A stretch of 64,000 nucleotides of DNA, from positions 1-64,000 of IMG/VR virus record IMGVR_UViG_3300022937_000008; one strand, given 5' to 3'. Shown one piece after another: positions 1 to 47,324 of the stretch. Position numbers and translations under genes: made by a program. Numbering within the stretch: the first letter of the stretch is position 1; every line of letters begins with the position of its first letter. Origin of the DNA: a virus. The notes beneath the pieces were generated by a model. The model was not told the DNA's origin, did not search any database, and saw nothing but the letters and a program-made list of their open reading frames with translations.

Positions 1-1
1 T

Positions 2-178
2 GAGGCGACCTGCGAGGTAGCGAGGATGCGCCTGGCGGACTTGGACCAGCAGGCGGTGTGCATTCCCGCAGGCCAAACAGTTTCGGAATCAGATGCCATG
101 TTTGACAAGTTCTTCAACATGGTGGAAAAGATGCACAAATTGGAGCAGAACAAATCGGTTGACAAATTGGGCAACTGA
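2..178 (+). CDS. hypothetical protein, 5'-truncated by window edge
   Basis: Open frame EATCEVARMRLAD...VDKLGN ending TGA at 176-178; not in ORF track. Confidence 0.6.
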   Translation, partial: EATCEVARMRLADLDQQAVCIPAGQTVSESDAMFDKFFNMVEKMHKLEQNKSVDKLGN

Positions 179-187
179 CCCTATAAT
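159..187 (+). promoter_or_regulatory. early sigma70-type promoter
   Basis: Perfect TTGACA(159-164)-N17-TATAAT(182-187), followed by AAGGAG SD and ATG 219. Confidence 0.9.
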
Positions 188-218
188 ATACATATAACTT
201 AAACAAAAGGAGCGAACT

Positions 219-605
219 ATGTTAGCAGAAAAAACCATCACCAAGACCCTAGAAGGTGTTACCTTTGCATTCGTACACGCAGAGGCTGTTCAAGCCGCTA
301 AGAAGGCAGTGGCAGACCTGCTAGAGAAGTGGCGAGCACAGACAGGCGGCAATGAATATGGTGAGCCAATGTACTGTGGTTTTGCCTGGGTTGATGTACG
401 TGGCGTACGAAGCAACTCCAAGCTGGGAACTGCCATGCAGGCACAGGGTTTCCGTAAGAGCTACCAAAGTGGTGTTCTTCAGTTATGGGATCCAGCAGAG
501 CATCGTGGGCAGAGCATGGATTGCAAAGAAGCTGGTGCCCAAGCATATGCAGAGGTGCTACGTGGTTATGGCATCAACGCATATATGGGATCACGTGCAG
601 ACTAA
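219..605 (+). CDS. hypothetical early phage protein
   Basis: 128 aa, strong SD, own promoter and terminator; CGFAWV motif. Confidence 0.85.
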   Translation: MLAEKTITKTLEGVTFAFVHAEAVQAAKKAVADLLEKWRAQTGGNEYGEPMYCGFAWVDVRGVRSNSKLGTAMQAQGFRKSYQSGVLQLWDPAEHRGQSMDCKEAGAQAYAEVLRGYGINAYMGSRAD

Positions 606-615
606 CGGACACCAG

Positions 616-644
616 GAGTGTTGCAGAAATGCAACACTCTTTTT
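616..644 (+). terminator. rho-independent terminator
   Basis: GAGTGTTGCA-GAAA-TGCAACACTC followed by TTTTT. Confidence 0.85.
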
Positions 645-646
645 GG

Positions 647-674
647 TTGACTTATTTTCACAAGATGTTATTAT
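647..674 (+). promoter_or_regulatory. early sigma70-type promoter
   Basis: TTGACT(647-652)-N16-TATTAT(669-674) with extended -10 TG; leader nearly identical to that at 196-221. Confidence 0.7.
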
Positions 675-704
675 ATGAGTATGAACTTAACAAAAGGAGC
701 GACA

Positions 705-905
705 ATGAAAACGACAATGAATGTGATAGCAGGCTTATTGGTATTGGTGGGCATTATGATGGCCGCTGGTGCTGGCGGTGACTGTGATGGCAAGTGCATG
801 GAGTATGCGAACACACTGGGTGAGACACTCATGTATGGCTTTATTGGACTGTGCTTTATGGTAACAGGTGCGGCAATACTAATTGCAAACGAAAGCAGGT
901 CATAA
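705..905 (+). CDS. small two-TM membrane protein
   Basis: AAGGAG SD favours ATG 705; two hydrophobic segments flanking a CDGKC loop. Confidence 0.75.
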   Translation: MKTTMNVIAGLLVLVGIMMAAGAGGDCDGKCMEYANTLGETLMYGFIGLCFMVTGAAILIANESRS

Positions 906-1093
906 TGACCCTACAGAGATTCTTAATGCCCTTGGTATTGATAGCACTGGTGTGCCTTACAGCGTGTTCGAGTGTAAGCTCAAAGCAGGTGCTAAGGTCA
1001 ACACAGGATGTGGTGCAGACCGCTAAGATCTACAAGGGCACATCAGTCAAGGAAGAGGTAACGTGGAAGATAAGAAGCATATACGGACAGTAG
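905..1093 (+). CDS. putative lipoprotein
   Basis: Start overlaps upstream stop (TAATG); signal peptide with lipobox LTAC. Confidence 0.6.
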   Translation: MTLQRFLMPLVLIALVCLTACSSVSSKQVLRSTQDVVQTAKIYKGTSVKEEVTWKIRSIYGQ

Positions 1094-1281
1094 TTCTAGT
1101 GCTAGCCATCCTAGCAATGACAGGATGTAGCACACTGGACACACCATACGATCCAGATATACGCAGAGGCGAAACACTGTTCGATCAAATACCAAATCAA
1201 GAAAACAGGGAAGCTCTGGTGTGTGCAGGCAGCATACCGCAGCACAAGAGAAAGCCCTATCAAACAGGGAGGTGCGGCTAG
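1063..1281 (+). CDS. putative lipoprotein
   Basis: Basic N-terminus, hydrophobic core, lipobox MTGC; GAGG SD. Confidence 0.6.
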   Translation: MEDKKHIRTVVLVLAILAMTGCSTLDTPYDPDIRRGETLFDQIPNQENREALVCAGSIPQHKRKPYQTGRCG

Positions 1282-1466
1282 TGTATAGAGTATACTACTA
1301 CCAGGACAGTGTAGAACACTATGAAGGGTTCTACGAAACACAAGAAGAAGCAGAAGAAGTAGCAGAGGCAGTCGTGGACGACTACGAACCAGAGAGAGTT
1401 GAGGTTCGAGATCGATTCGACAACATCATCATCGCCTTCGGTGATGAGGTGGCGGTGGCCGGTTAG
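1281..1466 (+). CDS. small acidic hypothetical protein
   Basis: GGGAGG SD before GTG 1281, which overlaps the upstream stop. Confidence 0.65.
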   Translation: MYRVYYYQDSVEHYEGFYETQEEAEEVAEAVVDDYEPERVEVRDRFDNIIIAFGDEVAVAG

Positions 1467-1614
1467 ACCGACCGGTTATACAGTGCTGTGCTGTAGTGCT
1501 AGTTTTTAAGGCTAGTGGTCTAAAATCACCACCCAGAAAAGATAAGTACTTCACCTAAATTTTTTGCGCAGCAAATTTTTTTCCCTATAGACCCATTTGG
1601 GTGTAAATACTAGT

Positions 1615-1821
1615 ATGAAACAATACTGCGTATACACACCCGATATTACTCCCCAGTTTTTCAGAGATCTAGCCAGGCTAAACACACCCTTTGAAATACA
1701 TCTAAACCGTACTCGTTTTTGGCTAAACCGTATGCGTCCTTCACACTACTTGTTCTACTGCAAGTACTGTGTTCAAATGCACTGTGTAGAGCATGAAACC
1801 AATCACACCCTAGGCATCTAG
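1615..1821 (+). CDS. hypothetical protein
   Basis: ATG 5 nt after TAAATA (1604-1609). Confidence 0.55.
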   Translation: MKQYCVYTPDITPQFFRDLARLNTPFEIHLNRTRFWLNRMRPSHYLFYCKYCVQMHCVEHETNHTLGI

Positions 1822-2039
1822 TGTATACTATACAGCTAGACTATCCTGCGGATTGGGGCACACATCAATGTGATGCACAAACACACAGTTGCACTATAGA
1901 TCTACTAGTACAGCACTCAGTACACTGTAGTCAAAACGCACACAACACCATTATACTACACAACACACGTGATCTCACACTAGCACTTATAGCACTCAGC
2001 AAATACGGTGCCAAAATAGTTCAAAAACCCACCGTTTAA
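1821..2039 (+). CDS. hypothetical protein
   Basis: Coupled to upstream stop; very C/A-rich. Confidence 0.45.
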   Translation: MYTIQLDYPADWGTHQCDAQTHSCTIDLLVQHSVHCSQNAHNTIILHNTRDLTLALIALSKYGAKIVQKPTV

Positions 2040-2223
2040 CAGCATATATCGCTGTTGCTAGTAAATATTATTGTAAACAGTGCTTTGGCTGCTAACACGG
2101 ACTTTCAAAGTAATGACATATGCGTCGAAGAGTACGCTAGATAAACAAGTAGCCCAGGTGTTCACCCAATTCACTGTTTCATTTGATAAATATGTGTATA
2201 GAAAACTTTGGAGTATATACACT

Positions 2224-2451
2224 ATGGCCAGTTGGGAAAATCTACGTAACAAACACACAGGTGTGGGCAAAGACACACCCAAGTACAGAATACTAAACGA
2301 ATGGGGCAACCCAGTTGACAACGACCTATGGAGTCGTGAACGAGCAGAAGAACTAGTACGTTGGAAGTATGAGGGACGCAAGGACTACTCAATTCAAGAG
2401 TACTATGACGCACCACTTACACCTGACAACACTGGAAGAGTACAATCATAA
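2224..2451 (+). CDS. hypothetical protein
   Basis: GATAAATA promoter near 2186 and GGAG SD favour the MASWENL start. Confidence 0.65.
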   Translation: MASWENLRNKHTGVGKDTPKYRILNEWGNPVDNDLWSRERAEELVRWKYEGRKDYSIQEYYDAPLTPDNTGRVQS

Positions 2452-2669
2452 TGGCCACTTATCTATTACCCAAAGCACGTAGAACACTCACTGGACAAAC
2501 AGTCAAAACACAAGATCTAACAGGTGCACGATACACACTGCGTCAGCGAGCATTTGCAGAACAAGCAGCTGAACAACTGGCACTTAAAATGCAGGATCAA
2601 ACCAACGATGAGTGGACACCCATTGTTGTAGAATACACACCTTCTTTTCGTAGATCAGAACAAGACTAA
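2451..2669 (+). CDS. hypothetical protein
   Basis: TAATG coupling, 72 aa. Confidence 0.7.
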   Translation: MATYLLPKARRTLTGQTVKTQDLTGARYTLRQRAFAEQAAEQLALKMQDQTNDEWTPIVVEYTPSFRRSEQD

Positions 2670-2759
2670 TTTCTCACACTCTGTTACAAGGCTGAGCGGA
2701 CCCTAGTCCTACTCGGCCAGTCGGCATTTTCTCTTACCGTGATCTGCGCTAACCGCTGC

Positions 2760-2827
2760 GCTGCTTCGCAGCTCTTTACTATCGCGTACCGCTTCGCGGC
2801 TCGAAAAATCGCGGAGCGGCTTCGCCG
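2760..2827. repeat. three GC-TTC-GC / GC-GAA-GC mini-hairpins phased at 28 bp
   Basis: GCTGC-TTC-GCAGC 2760-2772, CCGC-TTC-GCGG 2789-2799, CGGC-TTC-GCCG 2817-2827. Confidence 0.8.
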
Positions 2828-3096
2828 GGATTGACTGCACTCCACTCAATATACTCCAATTCAACACGTTTGGCTTCCCATTCTCTATAGTGCCATTCAC
2901 GCCAGGATTTTGCACCCTGTCGTCCTGCTCTCTGCCATTGGCAGTCATGATACAGTTCGTGTACTAGAATGTGATCTCGCATTTGGTCAGGTCGCACATA
3001 CACTACGCCATCTAGAAAGAATGTGCTGTTGGAAGGGTTTATAACTGCTTGTGGAACACAGTTTACCAACGCTAAAAACGCTAGTATTTTTGCCAT
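2779..3096 (-). CDS. small HExxH zincin-like protein
   Basis: Hydrophobic N-terminus; ILVHELYHDCQ followed by REWEA. Confidence 0.55.
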   Translation of the reverse strand: MAKILAFLALVNCVPQAVINPSNSTFFLDGVVYVRPDQMRDHILVHELYHDCQWQRAGRQGAKSWREWHYREWEAKRVELEYIEWSAVNPGEAAPRFFEPRSGTR

Positions 3097-3128
3097 TGAG
3101 TATTTATTCTAGCGATAAATACTGTACT

Positions 3129-3698
3129 ATGAAGATATCTGAAATATTTACACAAGAAGCAAACATACCTTCAAGTTGGAACTACCAGCGATTAGATCCC
3201 AGTATTGAAAGTGCCATACAGGCTTTCAAGAACCTAAAGTGGCCCAAGTCACCCAACAATCCCAAAGCAATTGTTGTTCCTAGCAATTCAGAAGGAACAA
3301 GCAGCAGAGAATATCAACAGAAGAGCACCAACGAGCTTAAACAAATGATTGTGGACTTTGTTATGAATTTGAGATTTGGTAAAGTGAAAGGCGGTTTTTG
3401 GATTGGTCGTGCAGGCAAAGCGTGGATCGATGACAGTGCAGCTGAGTTGGCCAAAACCCTAGCATCAAAAACTGATCTAGGCAACAAAGATATAGAAGCA
3501 CTGGCCAAAAAACAAGGTATGCCTACTCCTGCTGAACAAGCAGCACAAGCTATTGCATCAATACCAAAAGATATCAGAGTAAAACTAATAGACTTTGACA
3601 CACCCTATTCAGAATTAAAAGATATCATAGGAGATCAAGGACTAAGCAAAGAAGATCTCAAATCTTCAAAGTTTCCAGACGGTAAAAGCTGGTTTTAA
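3129..3698 (+). CDS. hypothetical protein, possible head internal protein
   Basis: TAAATA 3116-3121 then ATG 3129; N-terminus MKISEIFTQE resembles T4 capsid-targeting sequences. Confidence 0.7.
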   Translation: MKISEIFTQEANIPSSWNYQRLDPSIESAIQAFKNLKWPKSPNNPKAIVVPSNSEGTSSREYQQKSTNELKQMIVDFVMNLRFGKVKGGFWIGRAGKAWIDDSAAELAKTLASKTDLGNKDIEALAKKQGMPTPAEQAAQAIASIPKDIRVKLIDFDTPYSELKDIIGDQGLSKEDLKSSKFPDGKSWF

Positions 3699-3748
3699 TA
3701 CACTTCCCTACTAAATAGCCTATAAAAAACCTTTAACCTTGGAGGGTT

Positions 3749-3895
3749 ATGGCTAAGTTAGCAAAGACGTATGTGCGTCACGTTAGAACACCTAAAAAGA
3801 CCAGCCAATCTAGCAAGAAACGATCTTGCAAGATGAGTTCTATGAACAAGCACAAAAAACGTTCTCACAAGTTCTATAGAGGACAGGGGAAGTAA
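3749..3895 (+). CDS. small basic protein ending YRGQGK (48 aa; not in ORF track)
   Basis: MAKLAKTYVRHVRTPKKTSQSSKKRSCKMSSMNKHKKRSHKFYRGQGK; GGAGG SD; CTAAATA promoter near 3711. Confidence 0.8.
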   Translation: MAKLAKTYVRHVRTPKKTSQSSKKRSCKMSSMNKHKKRSHKFYRGQGK

Positions 3896-4081
3896 ATGGC
3901 CGTAAAAAAGAACAAAGGCATCCAAACTGTACATATTCCAAGAACACATGATGGCAGAGAAATCAAACCTGTGCGTTATGTTCGTTTTGGAGGTGCCAGC
4001 ATAATGGCTGGTGCTTACAAAGATACTGGTGATATGATTCTAGATAGTAATGGTAAAGTTATACCATTTCACAACATCTAA
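3896..4081 (+). CDS. hypothetical protein
   Basis: 61 aa, starts immediately after previous stop. Confidence 0.7.
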   Translation: MAVKKNKGIQTVHIPRTHDGREIKPVRYVRFGGASIMAGAYKDTGDMILDSNGKVIPFHNI

Positions 4082-4193: not shown

Positions 4194-4232
4194 AAGCAGC
4201 ATACTAGACTCTATATACTAAATAGTTTTATA

Positions 4233-4281
4233 ATCGTTCAGCCATAAGGGCCGGAAGTAGGTAATACCGAAGGAACGCACC
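4233..4281 (+). ncRNA. glnA-motif (class I glutamine) riboswitch
   Basis: P1 CGTTC(4235-39)/GAACG(4273-77); short P2 GCC..GGC; core CGGAAGTAG-GT AAT ACC-GAAG with E-loop AGUA/GAA; directly upstream of SD and ATG 4306. Confidence 0.8.
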
Positions 4282-4305
4282 TAACTTTTAACTAAGGAGG
4301 GTGAC

Positions 4306-4500
4306 ATGGATAGACACTCATTTATGCTCAAACAATATTCTGAGCAACAAACTCGTAAAAAGAAGGAAATGGAATTATGGAGAGCTCGTCAAGAGGTTGA
4401 AGTAAATGCCAATGGTACTTCTGGATACAAGATAAAAGAGGGTGCTAACAAGGATAGGATCCTTGCTCATAACAGCATCAAGTCAACAAATAATTGGTAA
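4306..4500 (+). CDS. riboswitch-controlled small basic protein
   Basis: AAGGAGG SD, 64 aa. Confidence 0.8.
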   Translation: MDRHSFMLKQYSEQQTRKKKEMELWRARQEVEVNANGTSGYKIKEGANKDRILAHNSIKSTNNW

Positions 4501-4686
4501 TTATTTGAACGCTAGGTATGCTAGTAATGGAACTAGCCAAGGATATACCAAGTGTTCTATCAATTCGTAAATTACTAACAGCGTAAGTGCTATTGCCCAT
4601 GCTCTACTAGATTTAGCTTTAGCACTTACGTAACCAAATGCTCTACTGTGTAGACTACCTATTTTTTGAATCAGTGTTTGTTTCAT
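4501..4686 (-). CDS. small membrane protein
   Basis: Hydrophobic C-terminal half with YELIEH. Confidence 0.65.
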   Translation of the reverse strand: MKQTLIQKIGSLHSRAFGYVSAKAKSSRAWAIALTLLVIYELIEHLVYPWLVPLLAYLAFK

Positions 4687-4981
4687 TTGGCTTTACTAGC
4701 GAGGATAATGCATCTGCTAGAGTTTGGAATAGATTGGAAACCTGTTCCTTGTTTTTGTTCAGTTGTGCCTTGCCGTCCGCCCAATTCTTTTCTTGAAATG
4801 TCTTGATATCATTCCACTCTGATTGAGCCCAATCCTGCAATTTAAAATGTAAGGGTTTTGGTTCCGGAATCGTTTGGTTAGTAGTTGCATCTGCCTTGCT
4901 CGCAGTTACTAGACCAAAAAACAGTCCCGCTAATAGTATTGTTATTACTATAACTGCTTTCTTGAATTGTTTTTCTATCAT
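4655..4981 (-). CDS. secreted or membrane-anchored hypothetical protein
   Basis: N-terminal signal/TM then amphipathic helix. Confidence 0.65.
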   Translation of the reverse strand: MIEKQFKKAVIVITILLAGLFFGLVTASKADATTNQTIPEPKPLHFKLQDWAQSEWNDIKTFQEKNWADGKAQLNKNKEQVSNLFQTLADALSSLVKPNETNTDSKNR

Positions 4982-5004: not shown

Positions 5005-5081
5005 TGGCCTGCTTGGAAGGATTCGAACCTCCGGCCTTCAGTTCCGCAAACTGACGCTCTATCCAACTGAGCTACAAGCAG
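5005..5081 (-). tRNA. tRNA-Arg(GCG)
   Basis: Acceptor CTGCTTG/CAAGCAG, discriminator G plus encoded CCA; D-loop AGTTGGATA (A20); anticodon arm TCAGT-TTGCGGA-ACTGA; T-arm GGAGG-TTCGAAT-CCTTC. Confidence 0.92.
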
Positions 5082-46241: not shown

Positions 46242-47324
46242 TTATAATCCTTCTGGCACCATATTTTTCGGCGATGCATTTGTGCCTTCGTCGCCTGTAT
46301 TATTCTTAGGAGTAATAATACCTGCAATGCCGCTTACTGTATTAGCAATTTTTTGTGTACCTGCTGGACTTGTTAGAATATTAATTGCTTCTTGTTTAAG
46401 ACTTTCTTTCGATAGTCCTTTAATATTTCTTGCTGTATTAATTGCACCGATTGCTGTAGATAAAAATCCTGCTGGAGAATTAAATGCTGTTCCGTCACCA
46501 ATTGCACCAAACACCTGTTCTAATCCATCAAGCACACCACCTTCTCCAACGAGGTTACTCACGCCGCCACCCGCAACACTTAATGGTGAAGGTGTATTGT
46601 CGTAGTGTAGTGTAGCAAACCCTTTAGGATTGCCTTCGCTTACTGTTCCTGCTGTGTATTGAACTGCTTCATATTGCAATGTCATTTGACTTTCTGCTGG
46701 CTCACTTGATGCAGTATAATCCATACTACCGTGAGACCAAGAAGTAATTTTAGGATTAACTAAAGTATAACCTATAAATCTTCTTCTACCCATAGTATAA
46801 ATTGTTACGCTTTTAAACAACGGTGCAGTAACGTTATTGTCTAAGCCATATCTAAAATGTAAATTTTCTGTTGTTTGTCTGTATGCATTACTTTCCCATG
46901 CAGCATTAGGCAATGCTCTATCTTTAATATAGTATCCATAATATATTGCCCATAACGCTGACACTACACCTTGATTATCATCGTGGAATGTTAAGTTAAC
47001 AGGATCATAGCTAATCATTTTATAAAGAATACGTTTTCTGTTATACTGATTTAAAGTTTCAGTTTCAAATGTAAACTTAGGTAAGTCTGCGGTTTTAACT
47101 AGCAGGCCAAATTCTTCACTATGTTTTTGTGAAAAGTTTGCAGCACCGTGTGCTGACTTATCTATTTCAAATCTAACATAATAGTTAAATTTAGTTTTAG
47201 GGGCTAATCTATATCCGTCGTCAAGGAATAGTCTTGTAGCGTGTTGATAGTTCCCTACAAGTCCTTTAGGATTTGTTAACCCTGAAAAAACATCTGTTAA
47301 AAATCTTGTAAATTTGTTGGCCAT
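46242..47324 (-). CDS. tail-tube-like baseplate protein (gp48/gp54-like)
   Basis: LVKTADLP, NQYNR, YDPVNLTFHDD; adjacent to tube gene. Confidence 0.65.
   Translation of the reverse strand: MANKFTRFLTDVFSGLTNPKGLVGNYQHATRLFLDDGYRLAPKTKFNYYVRFEIDKSAHGAANFSQKHSEEFGLLVKTADLPKFTFETETLNQYNRKRILYKMISYDPVNLTFHDDNQGVVSALWAIYYGYYIKDRALPNAAWESNAYRQTTENLHFRYGLDNNVTAPLFKSVTIYTMGRRRFIGYTLVNPKITSWSHGSMDYTASSEPAESQMTLQYEAVQYTAGTVSEGNPKGFATLHYDNTPSPLSVAGGGVSNLVGEGGVLDGLEQVFGAIGDGTAFNSPAGFLSTAIGAINTARNIKGLSKESLKQEAINILTSPAGTQKIANTVSGIAGIITPKNNTGDEGTNASPKNMVPEGL

Follow-up and report, generated by a model that had tools for sequence, protein, structure and literature searches.

A large uncultured marine phage was found to carry a glutamine-I riboswitch directly before a gene for a basic protein of 64 amino acids, and by its sequence this protein is a copy of a small, single-copy chromosomal gene present in most of the SAR11 genomes searched. 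Both the class of switch and its occurrence in marine phages have been published before; what is new is which protein is regulated, the context of that protein, and the shared anti-Shine-Dalgarno (anti-SD) platform. Taken as a whole, the model that we favour, in which a late transcript would carry a glutamine ON switch ahead of a SAR11-type protein acting on glutamine synthetase (GS) or nitrogen assimilation, is moderately probable. The DNA analysed, hereafter called the window, comprises positions 1 to 64,000 (64,000 nucleotides) of the IMG/VR virus record IMGVR_UViG_3300022937_000008, and coordinates refer to it unless a locus is named.

Identification of the riboswitch aptamer

A sequence-only reading of this DNA had proposed that a glnA-motif glutamine riboswitch controls the 64-amino-acid phage protein. 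When the sequence was re-read, all elements listed in that reading were present where it had placed them, and the Infernal search with the Rfam glnA model which it had suggested matched RF01739 at 4233-4281 (+) with 56.0 bits (E 1.2e-9, full model 1-53 of 53; cmscan, Rfam 15), compared with a gathering score of 35 bits. RF01739 occurred as a single copy on the whole 114-kb viral record. The unit consists of the following features:

4233 to 4281, + strand: glutamine-I (glnA motif) aptamer, by RF01739 match and covariation
4235-4239 with 4273-4277, + strand: aptamer helix P1
4241-4243 with 4249-4251, + strand: aptamer helix P2, GCC/GGC
4260-4262 with 4266-4268, + strand: aptamer helix P3
4252-4259, + strand: aptamer junction J2/3, CGGAAGUA
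4306 to 4500, + strand: gene for the 64-amino-acid basic protein (open reading frame with ATG at 4306; phrog_32989)

The aptamer reads CGUUC-A-GCC-AUAAG-GGC-CGGAAGUA-GGU-AAU-ACC-GAAG-GAACG, followed by CACCUAACUUUUAACUAAGGAGGGUGAC and the ATG at 4306, and lies 24 nt ahead of the gene. In the DNA, CGTTCA occupies 4235-4240 and CGGAAGTAGG-TAAT-ACCGAAGGAACG ends at 4277. By itself the folding energy was not exceptional (z = -0.19). The Rfam score and the covariation described below confirm the proposed assignment to the glnA-type (glutamine-I) class, of which the aptamer is a bona fide member, the RNA itself being ordinary.

Conservation of the aptamer in related viral loci

A protein-profile search found relatives of the 64-amino-acid protein at 340 viral loci (62 protein clusters), of which 80 were kept; upstream DNA was present in 76. 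The aptamer stood directly before the gene in 59 of these 76 loci, and the co-occurrence of aptamer and open reading frame exceeds chance. The strict core pattern was seen in 56 of the 59, two had a compensated P1 with C-G changed to U-A (L033 and L070; CGUUU/GAAAC... U-A), and one had GGUAGUA for GGAAGUA in the junction (L062). Only the 3' half of the aptamer was retained in three of the 76 loci (L021, L057 and L058), riboswitch remnants in which unrelated sequence replaces the 5' half and the anti-SD platform is kept. The switch was absent from 14, and in these the gene lies inside operons.

In 34 distinct leaders P1 was invariant, as was the conserved core CGGAAGUAGG ... GAAGGAACG of the three-stem junction, and all P2 and P3 pairs changed on both sides. 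Within P2 and P3 of these leaders 79 cells were changed on both sides, compared with 23 in shuffles, and 95 % of the cells were paired, compared with 83 % in shuffles; sliding the partner columns lowered pairing to 34-47 %. The double change from C-G to U-A in P1 of L033 and L070 keeps the pairing. Dozens of phage lineages have compensatory changes in P1, P2 and P3 and in the anti-SD helix, which shows that the structure is under purifying selection within phages. These changes, together with the intact core nucleotides and a score far above the cut-off, argue against the aptamer being a passenger that was captured with a host gene and lost its regulation in the phage; the remnant switches with a replaced 5' half and the 14 viral loci devoid of any switch favour such a history, which we nevertheless consider extremely improbable.

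Expression platform and direction of the switch

The sequence between the aptamer and the gene contains the putative expression platform:

4278 to 4303, + strand: anti-SD hairpin (expression platform), by minimum free energy and centroid folds and by covariation
4294 to 4300, + strand: Shine-Dalgarno (SD) AAGGAGG, read from the sequence, 5 nt before the ATG

In this hairpin CACCU (4278-4282) pairs with GGGUG (4299-4303), and CUU (4285-4287) forms an inner helix with AAG (4294-4296), the 3' strand of which is the start of the SD; the hairpin alone has a folding energy of -9.7 kcal/mol. That CACC (4278-4281) could pair with GGTG (4300-4303) beside the SD had been noted before, and the pairing was now recognised as a covarying anti-SD helix with compensatory changes among leaders. 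In the leaders of the 64-amino-acid family, column 83:104 changes from C-G to U-A in two sequences and column 84:103 from U-G to C-G or U-A. The GGAG of the SD is invariant in the 34 leaders, as is C4278, the base directly 3' of P1.

A scan of viral contigs with the aptamer core gave at least 120 further stretches. At least five contiguous pairs starting at the C right after P1 were found in 76 of 98 distinct phage leaders, which span several downstream gene families, compared with a mean of 48 and a maximum of 56 in 500 shuffles of the 98 leaders. The compensatory variants included CACUU/GAGUG, CACCC/GGGUG, CACCU/AGGUG, CAUCU../..AGAUG and CAAUCUU/GAGAUUG, and further matched variants were CACUUU/GAAGUG, CAUCUUU/GGAGAUG and CACUCUG/UGGAGUG. 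Given the excess of 76 leaders over the shuffled maximum, an anti-SD helix that starts at the C following P1 is a general feature of phage glutamine switches. Leaving Ames & Breaker 2011 and Ren et al. 2015 aside, no earlier description of an anti-SD helix at this position was found in the literature.

A review of the solved aptamer states that the junction G23 moves to the base of P1 upon glutamine binding and forms a pair with C60 there, and that this pair exists only with the ligand (PMC11477058). Mapped by position, C4278 would correspond to C60, the ligand-dependent 'linchpin' base. In Synechocystis the glnA-type gifB switch responds to a rise in glutamine with higher expression (PMC6212724), and a structure occluding the ribosome binding site has been proposed as the competitor in the related glutamine-II switch (PMC6698751). 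For these reasons, and because the first C of the anti-SD helix is expected to be paired within the glutamine-bound aptamer, the platform is likely to be a translational ON switch.

In the proposed mechanism, the late transcript probably starts just after a TAAATA box and opens with the glutamine-I riboswitch. CACCU, from C4278 onwards, and GGGUG would bury the ribosome binding site together with the inner helix. When glutamine is bound, the aptamer would draw C4278 into a pair with a G of the junction CGG, and the anti-SD hairpin, deprived of its closing pair and of its stacking on P1, would allow ribosomes to load. One and the same base would thus be the closing base of the anti-SD hairpin or of the aptamer, depending on the state.

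The opposite direction, in which glutamine would stabilise P1 and strengthen an anti-SD hairpin stacked on it, with the protein made only at low glutamine, was also considered. P1 and the hairpin are adjacent and could stack, and in the models the two coexist, the SD being mostly paired in each state; however, the first base of the hairpin is the linchpin base of the ligand-bound aptamer, and the glnA-type and DP-type switches that have been tested both raise expression with glutamine (PMC6212724), which makes an OFF switch distinctly unlikely. In nearest-neighbour folding the SD hairpin persisted with C4278 blocked and the SD was mostly paired in every modelled state, so the ON direction does not follow from secondary structure alone. 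The aptamer and the anti-SD hairpin are mutually compatible as secondary structures, which counts against the ON reading.

A scan for intrinsic terminators found none between the aptamer and the open reading frame and none after it, and a transcriptional (terminator) platform was rejected because of the former result. A second hairpin, CAUGGAU...AUUUAUG, is predicted at 4305-4326 and pairs the start codon (P(unpaired AUG) 0.04).

Promoter and transcription

A putative promoter element lies upstream of the aptamer:

4219 to 4224, + strand: TAAATA box, resembling a T4-type late promoter, conserved in the 34 leaders

The sequence (C/A)TAAATA was present 6-10 nt before P1 in 34 of 34 distinct leaders, in the window as CTAAATA. 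TAAATA is depleted in the window, with 63 occurrences seen and 107 expected, and 21 of the 63 boxes have a same-strand start of an open reading frame (at least 100 amino acids) 5-45 nt downstream, compared with 1.7 expected for random positions before such starts (maximum 8 of 1000). The box fits a putative T4-type late promoter (TATAAATA), from which the transcript would start a few bases before P1. A search for Sigma70_r2 in the viral record, which is 32 % complete by estimate, gave no match. A sigma-70 match, TAGACT-18-TATAAT at 4205-4234, was rejected as a promoter, since its -10 box runs into the beginning of the aptamer model and the transcript would begin inside P1.

Four salt-marsh metatranscriptomes contained contigs over the 3' half of the aptamer, the leader and the 5' part of the open reading frame at a word depth of 100-300, and the phage's own flanks were found in them at a word depth of 4 or less. 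These data are contigs and not reads and derive mostly from relatives, and the parts that they do not cover are uninformative. Because such contigs can include DNA, they give a weak hint that the 64-amino-acid gene family is transcribed.

The 64-amino-acid protein

The protein matched phrog_32989 (E 7.6e-12), residues 7-52 aligning with profile positions 6-52 of 54, and no Pfam family was found for it. R28 is invariant among its relatives, which also have the core NxNGTSGY in common. The AlphaFold2 model (pLDDT 67) has a confident helix at residues 3-27, followed by three short, less confident strands. With this model Foldseek found nothing below E 5 in the PDB, a PDB profile search with the protein gave no match, and the ESM Atlas returned viral hypothetical clusters only, at 0.83.

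A search for DUF4278 (PF14105), the domain of the cyanobacterial GS inactivating factors IF7 and IF17 (gifA/gifB), gave no match at E up to 10 in 29 family members or in the protein of the window; in the control, a YRG-repeat peptide encoded behind other viral glutamine riboswitches was recovered with E 9.8e-4 (19.9 bits, compared with a cut-off of 25.3). As none of the 29 members matched DUF4278, the 64-amino-acid protein is not a relative of IF7/IF17.

Among isolated phages the protein was found only in Pelagibacter phages (17 records), and at four isolated pelagiphage loci with a homologue there was no riboswitch. Copies in podophages lie inside operons of genes of unannotated function, without the switch. 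The likely host of the phage is SAR11 and not a cyanobacterium. Members at loci L218-L223 lie on short contigs binned to Chitinophagia, Actinomycetota, Verrucomicrobiota and archaeal metagenome-assembled genomes; they have no riboswitch, share another upstream motif, TATTGCTTT...GCAATAATATAAA, and are probably mis-binned freshwater phage fragments.

Homologues in SAR11 genomes

In species-representative genomes, 14 of 20 homologue matches belonged to Pelagibacteraceae, on contigs of up to 263 kb. Of 201 Pelagibacteraceae (SAR11) genomes searched with a profile, 149 gave a match, and all but one of these had a single copy. The protein ties the phage gene to a small gene that is unannotated or 'hypothetical' in these genomes. 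The genes around it are ordinary chromosomal ones: one SAR11 neighbourhood has purK, tauD, SRAP and flavodoxin on one side of the gene and rlmN and rmuC on the other; the alternative one has an MFS transporter, a dehydrogenase, RNA polymerase omega and a DEAD-box helicase.

Three contexts were distinguished. In context (a), the clade with Pelagibacter sp. IMCC9063 (WP_013695514.1), a version of 70 amino acids has RF01739 upstream (60 bits), with the CACCU...GGGUG platform of the phage, and the RF01739 copy before the small gene is the only one per genome. In context (b), the small gene comes after an iscA-like gene and lies tail-to-tail with glnA at a distance of 1-822 nt in 16 of the 21 genomes which have both on one contig; of the other five, one has it 2.9 kb from glnA and four have it at distant sites. 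The glnA-adjacent members are divergent and align with the family (alignment A6). In context (c), comprising other SAR11 clades, the gene stands behind a different structured leader, a double pseudoknot.

Many of the glnA loci (L271-L289) have only 1-25 nt between the convergent 3' ends of the small gene and glnA; the two transcripts probably overlap, so that antisense effects on glnA are possible. In a tree each host group formed its own clade; the phage sequences stood beside (a) and (c) without resolution, and the tree is silent on the gene donor. A match to alpha_tmRNA on a SAR11 locus (32 bits, compared with 50) was discarded as it consists of the open reading frame's own coding sequence and a terminator hairpin; ARAGORN finds no tmRNA there.

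The double-pseudoknot leader

The alternative SAR11 leader is represented by the following loci:

L213:3923-3978, + strand: double-pseudoknot leader; also at L207, L210-L217, L224, L225, L232, L237-L251 and L290-L319

It stands before the small gene in most of the SAR11 genomes devoid of the glutamine riboswitch, is about 56-75 nt long and consists of two tandem H-type pseudoknots, in some cases with an extra hairpin. In each pseudoknot a CAU/AUG-closed hairpin is followed by an A-rich linker and then by four bases that can pair with the loop of the hairpin. In 11 of these leaders 99.5 % of the cells were paired and 8 of 18 pairs changed on both sides, compared with less than 34 % pairing in slid controls. 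Rfam gave no match for the leader, also when it was searched alone. With a covariance model it was detected in 33 of 141 genomes, always as a single copy, and wherever coordinates were compared it stood immediately ahead of the small gene. One more clade has it in front of a different protein of 48 amino acids, which is 50 % identical (E 2e-14) to a 50-amino-acid open reading frame behind glutamine riboswitches of viral contigs. Because two protein families alternate between a glutamine-I switch and this leader, the double pseudoknot is a candidate glutamine or nitrogen-status sensor of a new riboswitch class.

Proposed function of the protein

SAR11 has no PII, GlnD or NtrBC, and its control of GS is unexplained (PMC3870248). 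In the favoured model the basic protein would be produced late in infection, in a glutamine-rich cell, as a functional analogue and not a relative of the cyanobacterial inactivating factors, and with it the phage would reset the nitrogen flow of its host. The SAR11 homologues beside glnA or behind their own glutamine riboswitch give circumstantial support to a role in nitrogen assimilation. Such a role would be the most economical one because of the two host contexts, the precedent of a GS inhibitor in cyanobacteria and the lack of PII, GlnD and NtrBC in SAR11; that the 64-amino-acid protein acts on GS or nitrogen assimilation is a serious possibility, if short of probable. Two observations count against GS: the glnA-adjacent members form a divergent clade of their own, apart from the phage sequences, and the glnA neighbourhood is convergent and not an operon. 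As SAR11 genomes are highly syntenic, the adjacency to glnA may be a single ancestral event. A complex prediction of SAR11 GlnA (A5) with the small protein (A6), run without controls, scored 0.00 and bears on binding in neither direction.

With the same riboswitch and platform, the protein could instead have a target unrelated to GS, for example ribosomes or translation, nucleic acids, late gene expression or lysis timing, glutamine serving as a nutritional read-out. The protein has neither homology to known GS factors nor a structural relative, is very basic and has a long N-terminal helix, all of which suit such a target, as do the many unrelated families of small basic open reading frames behind viral glutamine riboswitches and the switchless podophage copies in operons of unknown genes. 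The authors of the Melnitz phage paper had speculated on lysis control, and lysis timing had also been suggested in the sequence-only reading; no support for it was found in this analysis. The two independent host links, that is, an own single-copy glutamine riboswitch and conserved adjacency to glnA, speak against this alternative, as does the cyanobacterial precedent of a GS inhibitor under a switch of this class; a target unrelated to GS is possible but not favoured.

A broader proposal returns to nitrogen control and extends it to the host. SAR11, which is the ocean's most abundant heterotroph, would regulate GS or nitrogen assimilation through small basic proteins gated by glutamine-sensing leaders, glutamine-I in the IMCC9063 clade and the double pseudoknot, as a new glutamine or nitrogen-status riboswitch class, elsewhere; phages would have captured gene and switch to reset host nitrogen late in infection. 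This is speculative and, taken in full, somewhat unlikely to be correct. The present findings offer a concrete protein and two RNAs as candidates for the control of nitrogen in SAR11 in the absence of PII.

Comparison with known systems

The sequence-only reading had stated that cyanobacterial switches of this class control small regulators such as the GS inactivating factor and that such switches have been reported in marine phages, and both points agree with the literature (IF17, PMC6212724; marine phages, PMC9004378 and PMC9964418). The leader of gifB (IF17) of Synechocystis sp. PCC 6803 (Klahn et al. 2018, PMC6212724; RF01739) shares the aptamer family with the phage leader. In both cases the aptamer lies in the 5' UTR directly before a gene for a small basic protein, the proposed logic is that glutamine switches on a small regulator, and the SAR11 IMCC9063 clade has a single copy per genome, as do most cyanobacteria. 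The systems differ in that the protein regulated in phage and SAR11 belongs to an unrelated family without DUF4278, the switch is found in a phage and in alphaproteobacteria (SAR11) instead of cyanobacteria, the promoter is phage-late-like whereas that of gifB is NtcA-controlled, and the anti-SD helix at the linchpin C was derived here from covariation. IF7/IF17 and the 64-amino-acid protein are alike in being small and basic, with synthesis tied to glutamine and with the same suggested target enzyme; they have no sequence similarity, and the analogy is one of context only.

The phages Melnitz (OM43), the pelagimyophages and the cyanophage S-CREM1 (PMC9004378, PMC9964418) share the RNA class and the marine-phage setting, and the expression platform of Melnitz, CACUUAAC...GGGGAGAGUG, is of the same type. 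The published reports describe the RNA without a regulated small open reading frame, and the Melnitz switch was read as control of tmRNA, whereas here and, on inspection, in Melnitz a small open reading frame directly follows the switch.

Other glutamine riboswitches in phages

In Melnitz (L226:1200-1368, MZ577097.1 at about 46400-46570) the annotated SsrA has the riboswitch at its 3' end. Directly behind the riboswitch comes an open reading frame of 32 codons (L226 1270-1368, +) that is unannotated and has the same anti-SD platform; the record instead annotates an open reading frame of 33 amino acids on the opposite strand. The published riboswitch-controlled tmRNA of Melnitz is probably not right, which suggests that it is due a re-reading.

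In the viral scan, 13 of the 128 core matches listed preceded the 64-amino-acid family and the rest other small basic open reading frames. At the viral loci L086-L205, at least eight families of small basic open reading frames (26-65 amino acids) were found behind glutamine-riboswitch cores, several of them with tandem aptamers, and a subset of these loci uses a different platform, CACCAAUACC...GUAAAGGAGCA. The many glutamine riboswitches of ocean viromes would control a range of small-protein families by means of a common anti-SD platform.

The phage replicon

The IMG/VR record which holds the window is 114,291 bp long, with a CheckV completeness estimate of 32 %. The window encodes a tail-sheath protein of 1115 amino acids, a DnaB-type helicase, a carbamoyltransferase and helicases, one of which is about 51 % identical to jumbo-phage counterparts, e.g. 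those of PA5oct and Atu_ph07. The tail sheath, the DnaB, the jumbo-phage-like helicase and the estimated completeness of the record identify the replicon as a large uncultured phage, in agreement with the assignment to a phage made from the sequence. A nucleotide search of phage isolates with this DNA gave tRNA matches only.

The G+C content is 44 % in the first 4 kb of the window and 33-40 % over most of the rest. Positions 1-4000, possibly a mosaic or early region, contain many short plus-strand open reading frames for which no family was matched. An extremely basic open reading frame of 48 amino acids (phrog_17967, E 1.6e-12) lies at 3749-3895 (+), a short distance upstream of the riboswitch unit. 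Downstream of the unit one further structure was predicted:

4581 to 4630, strand not assigned: stem-loop of 11-12 bp, from RNAfold of 4495-4660

This stem-loop lies between the 64-amino-acid gene and a convergent minus-strand gene (4655-4981), has no U tract, and could mark the end of a transcript or contribute to RNA stability. A tRNA-Arg gene (anticodon GCG) is found close to the riboswitch unit, at 5005-5081 (-), and a tRNA (Met) gene is also present about 1 kb downstream of the small gene at the host locus of the IMCC9063 clade.
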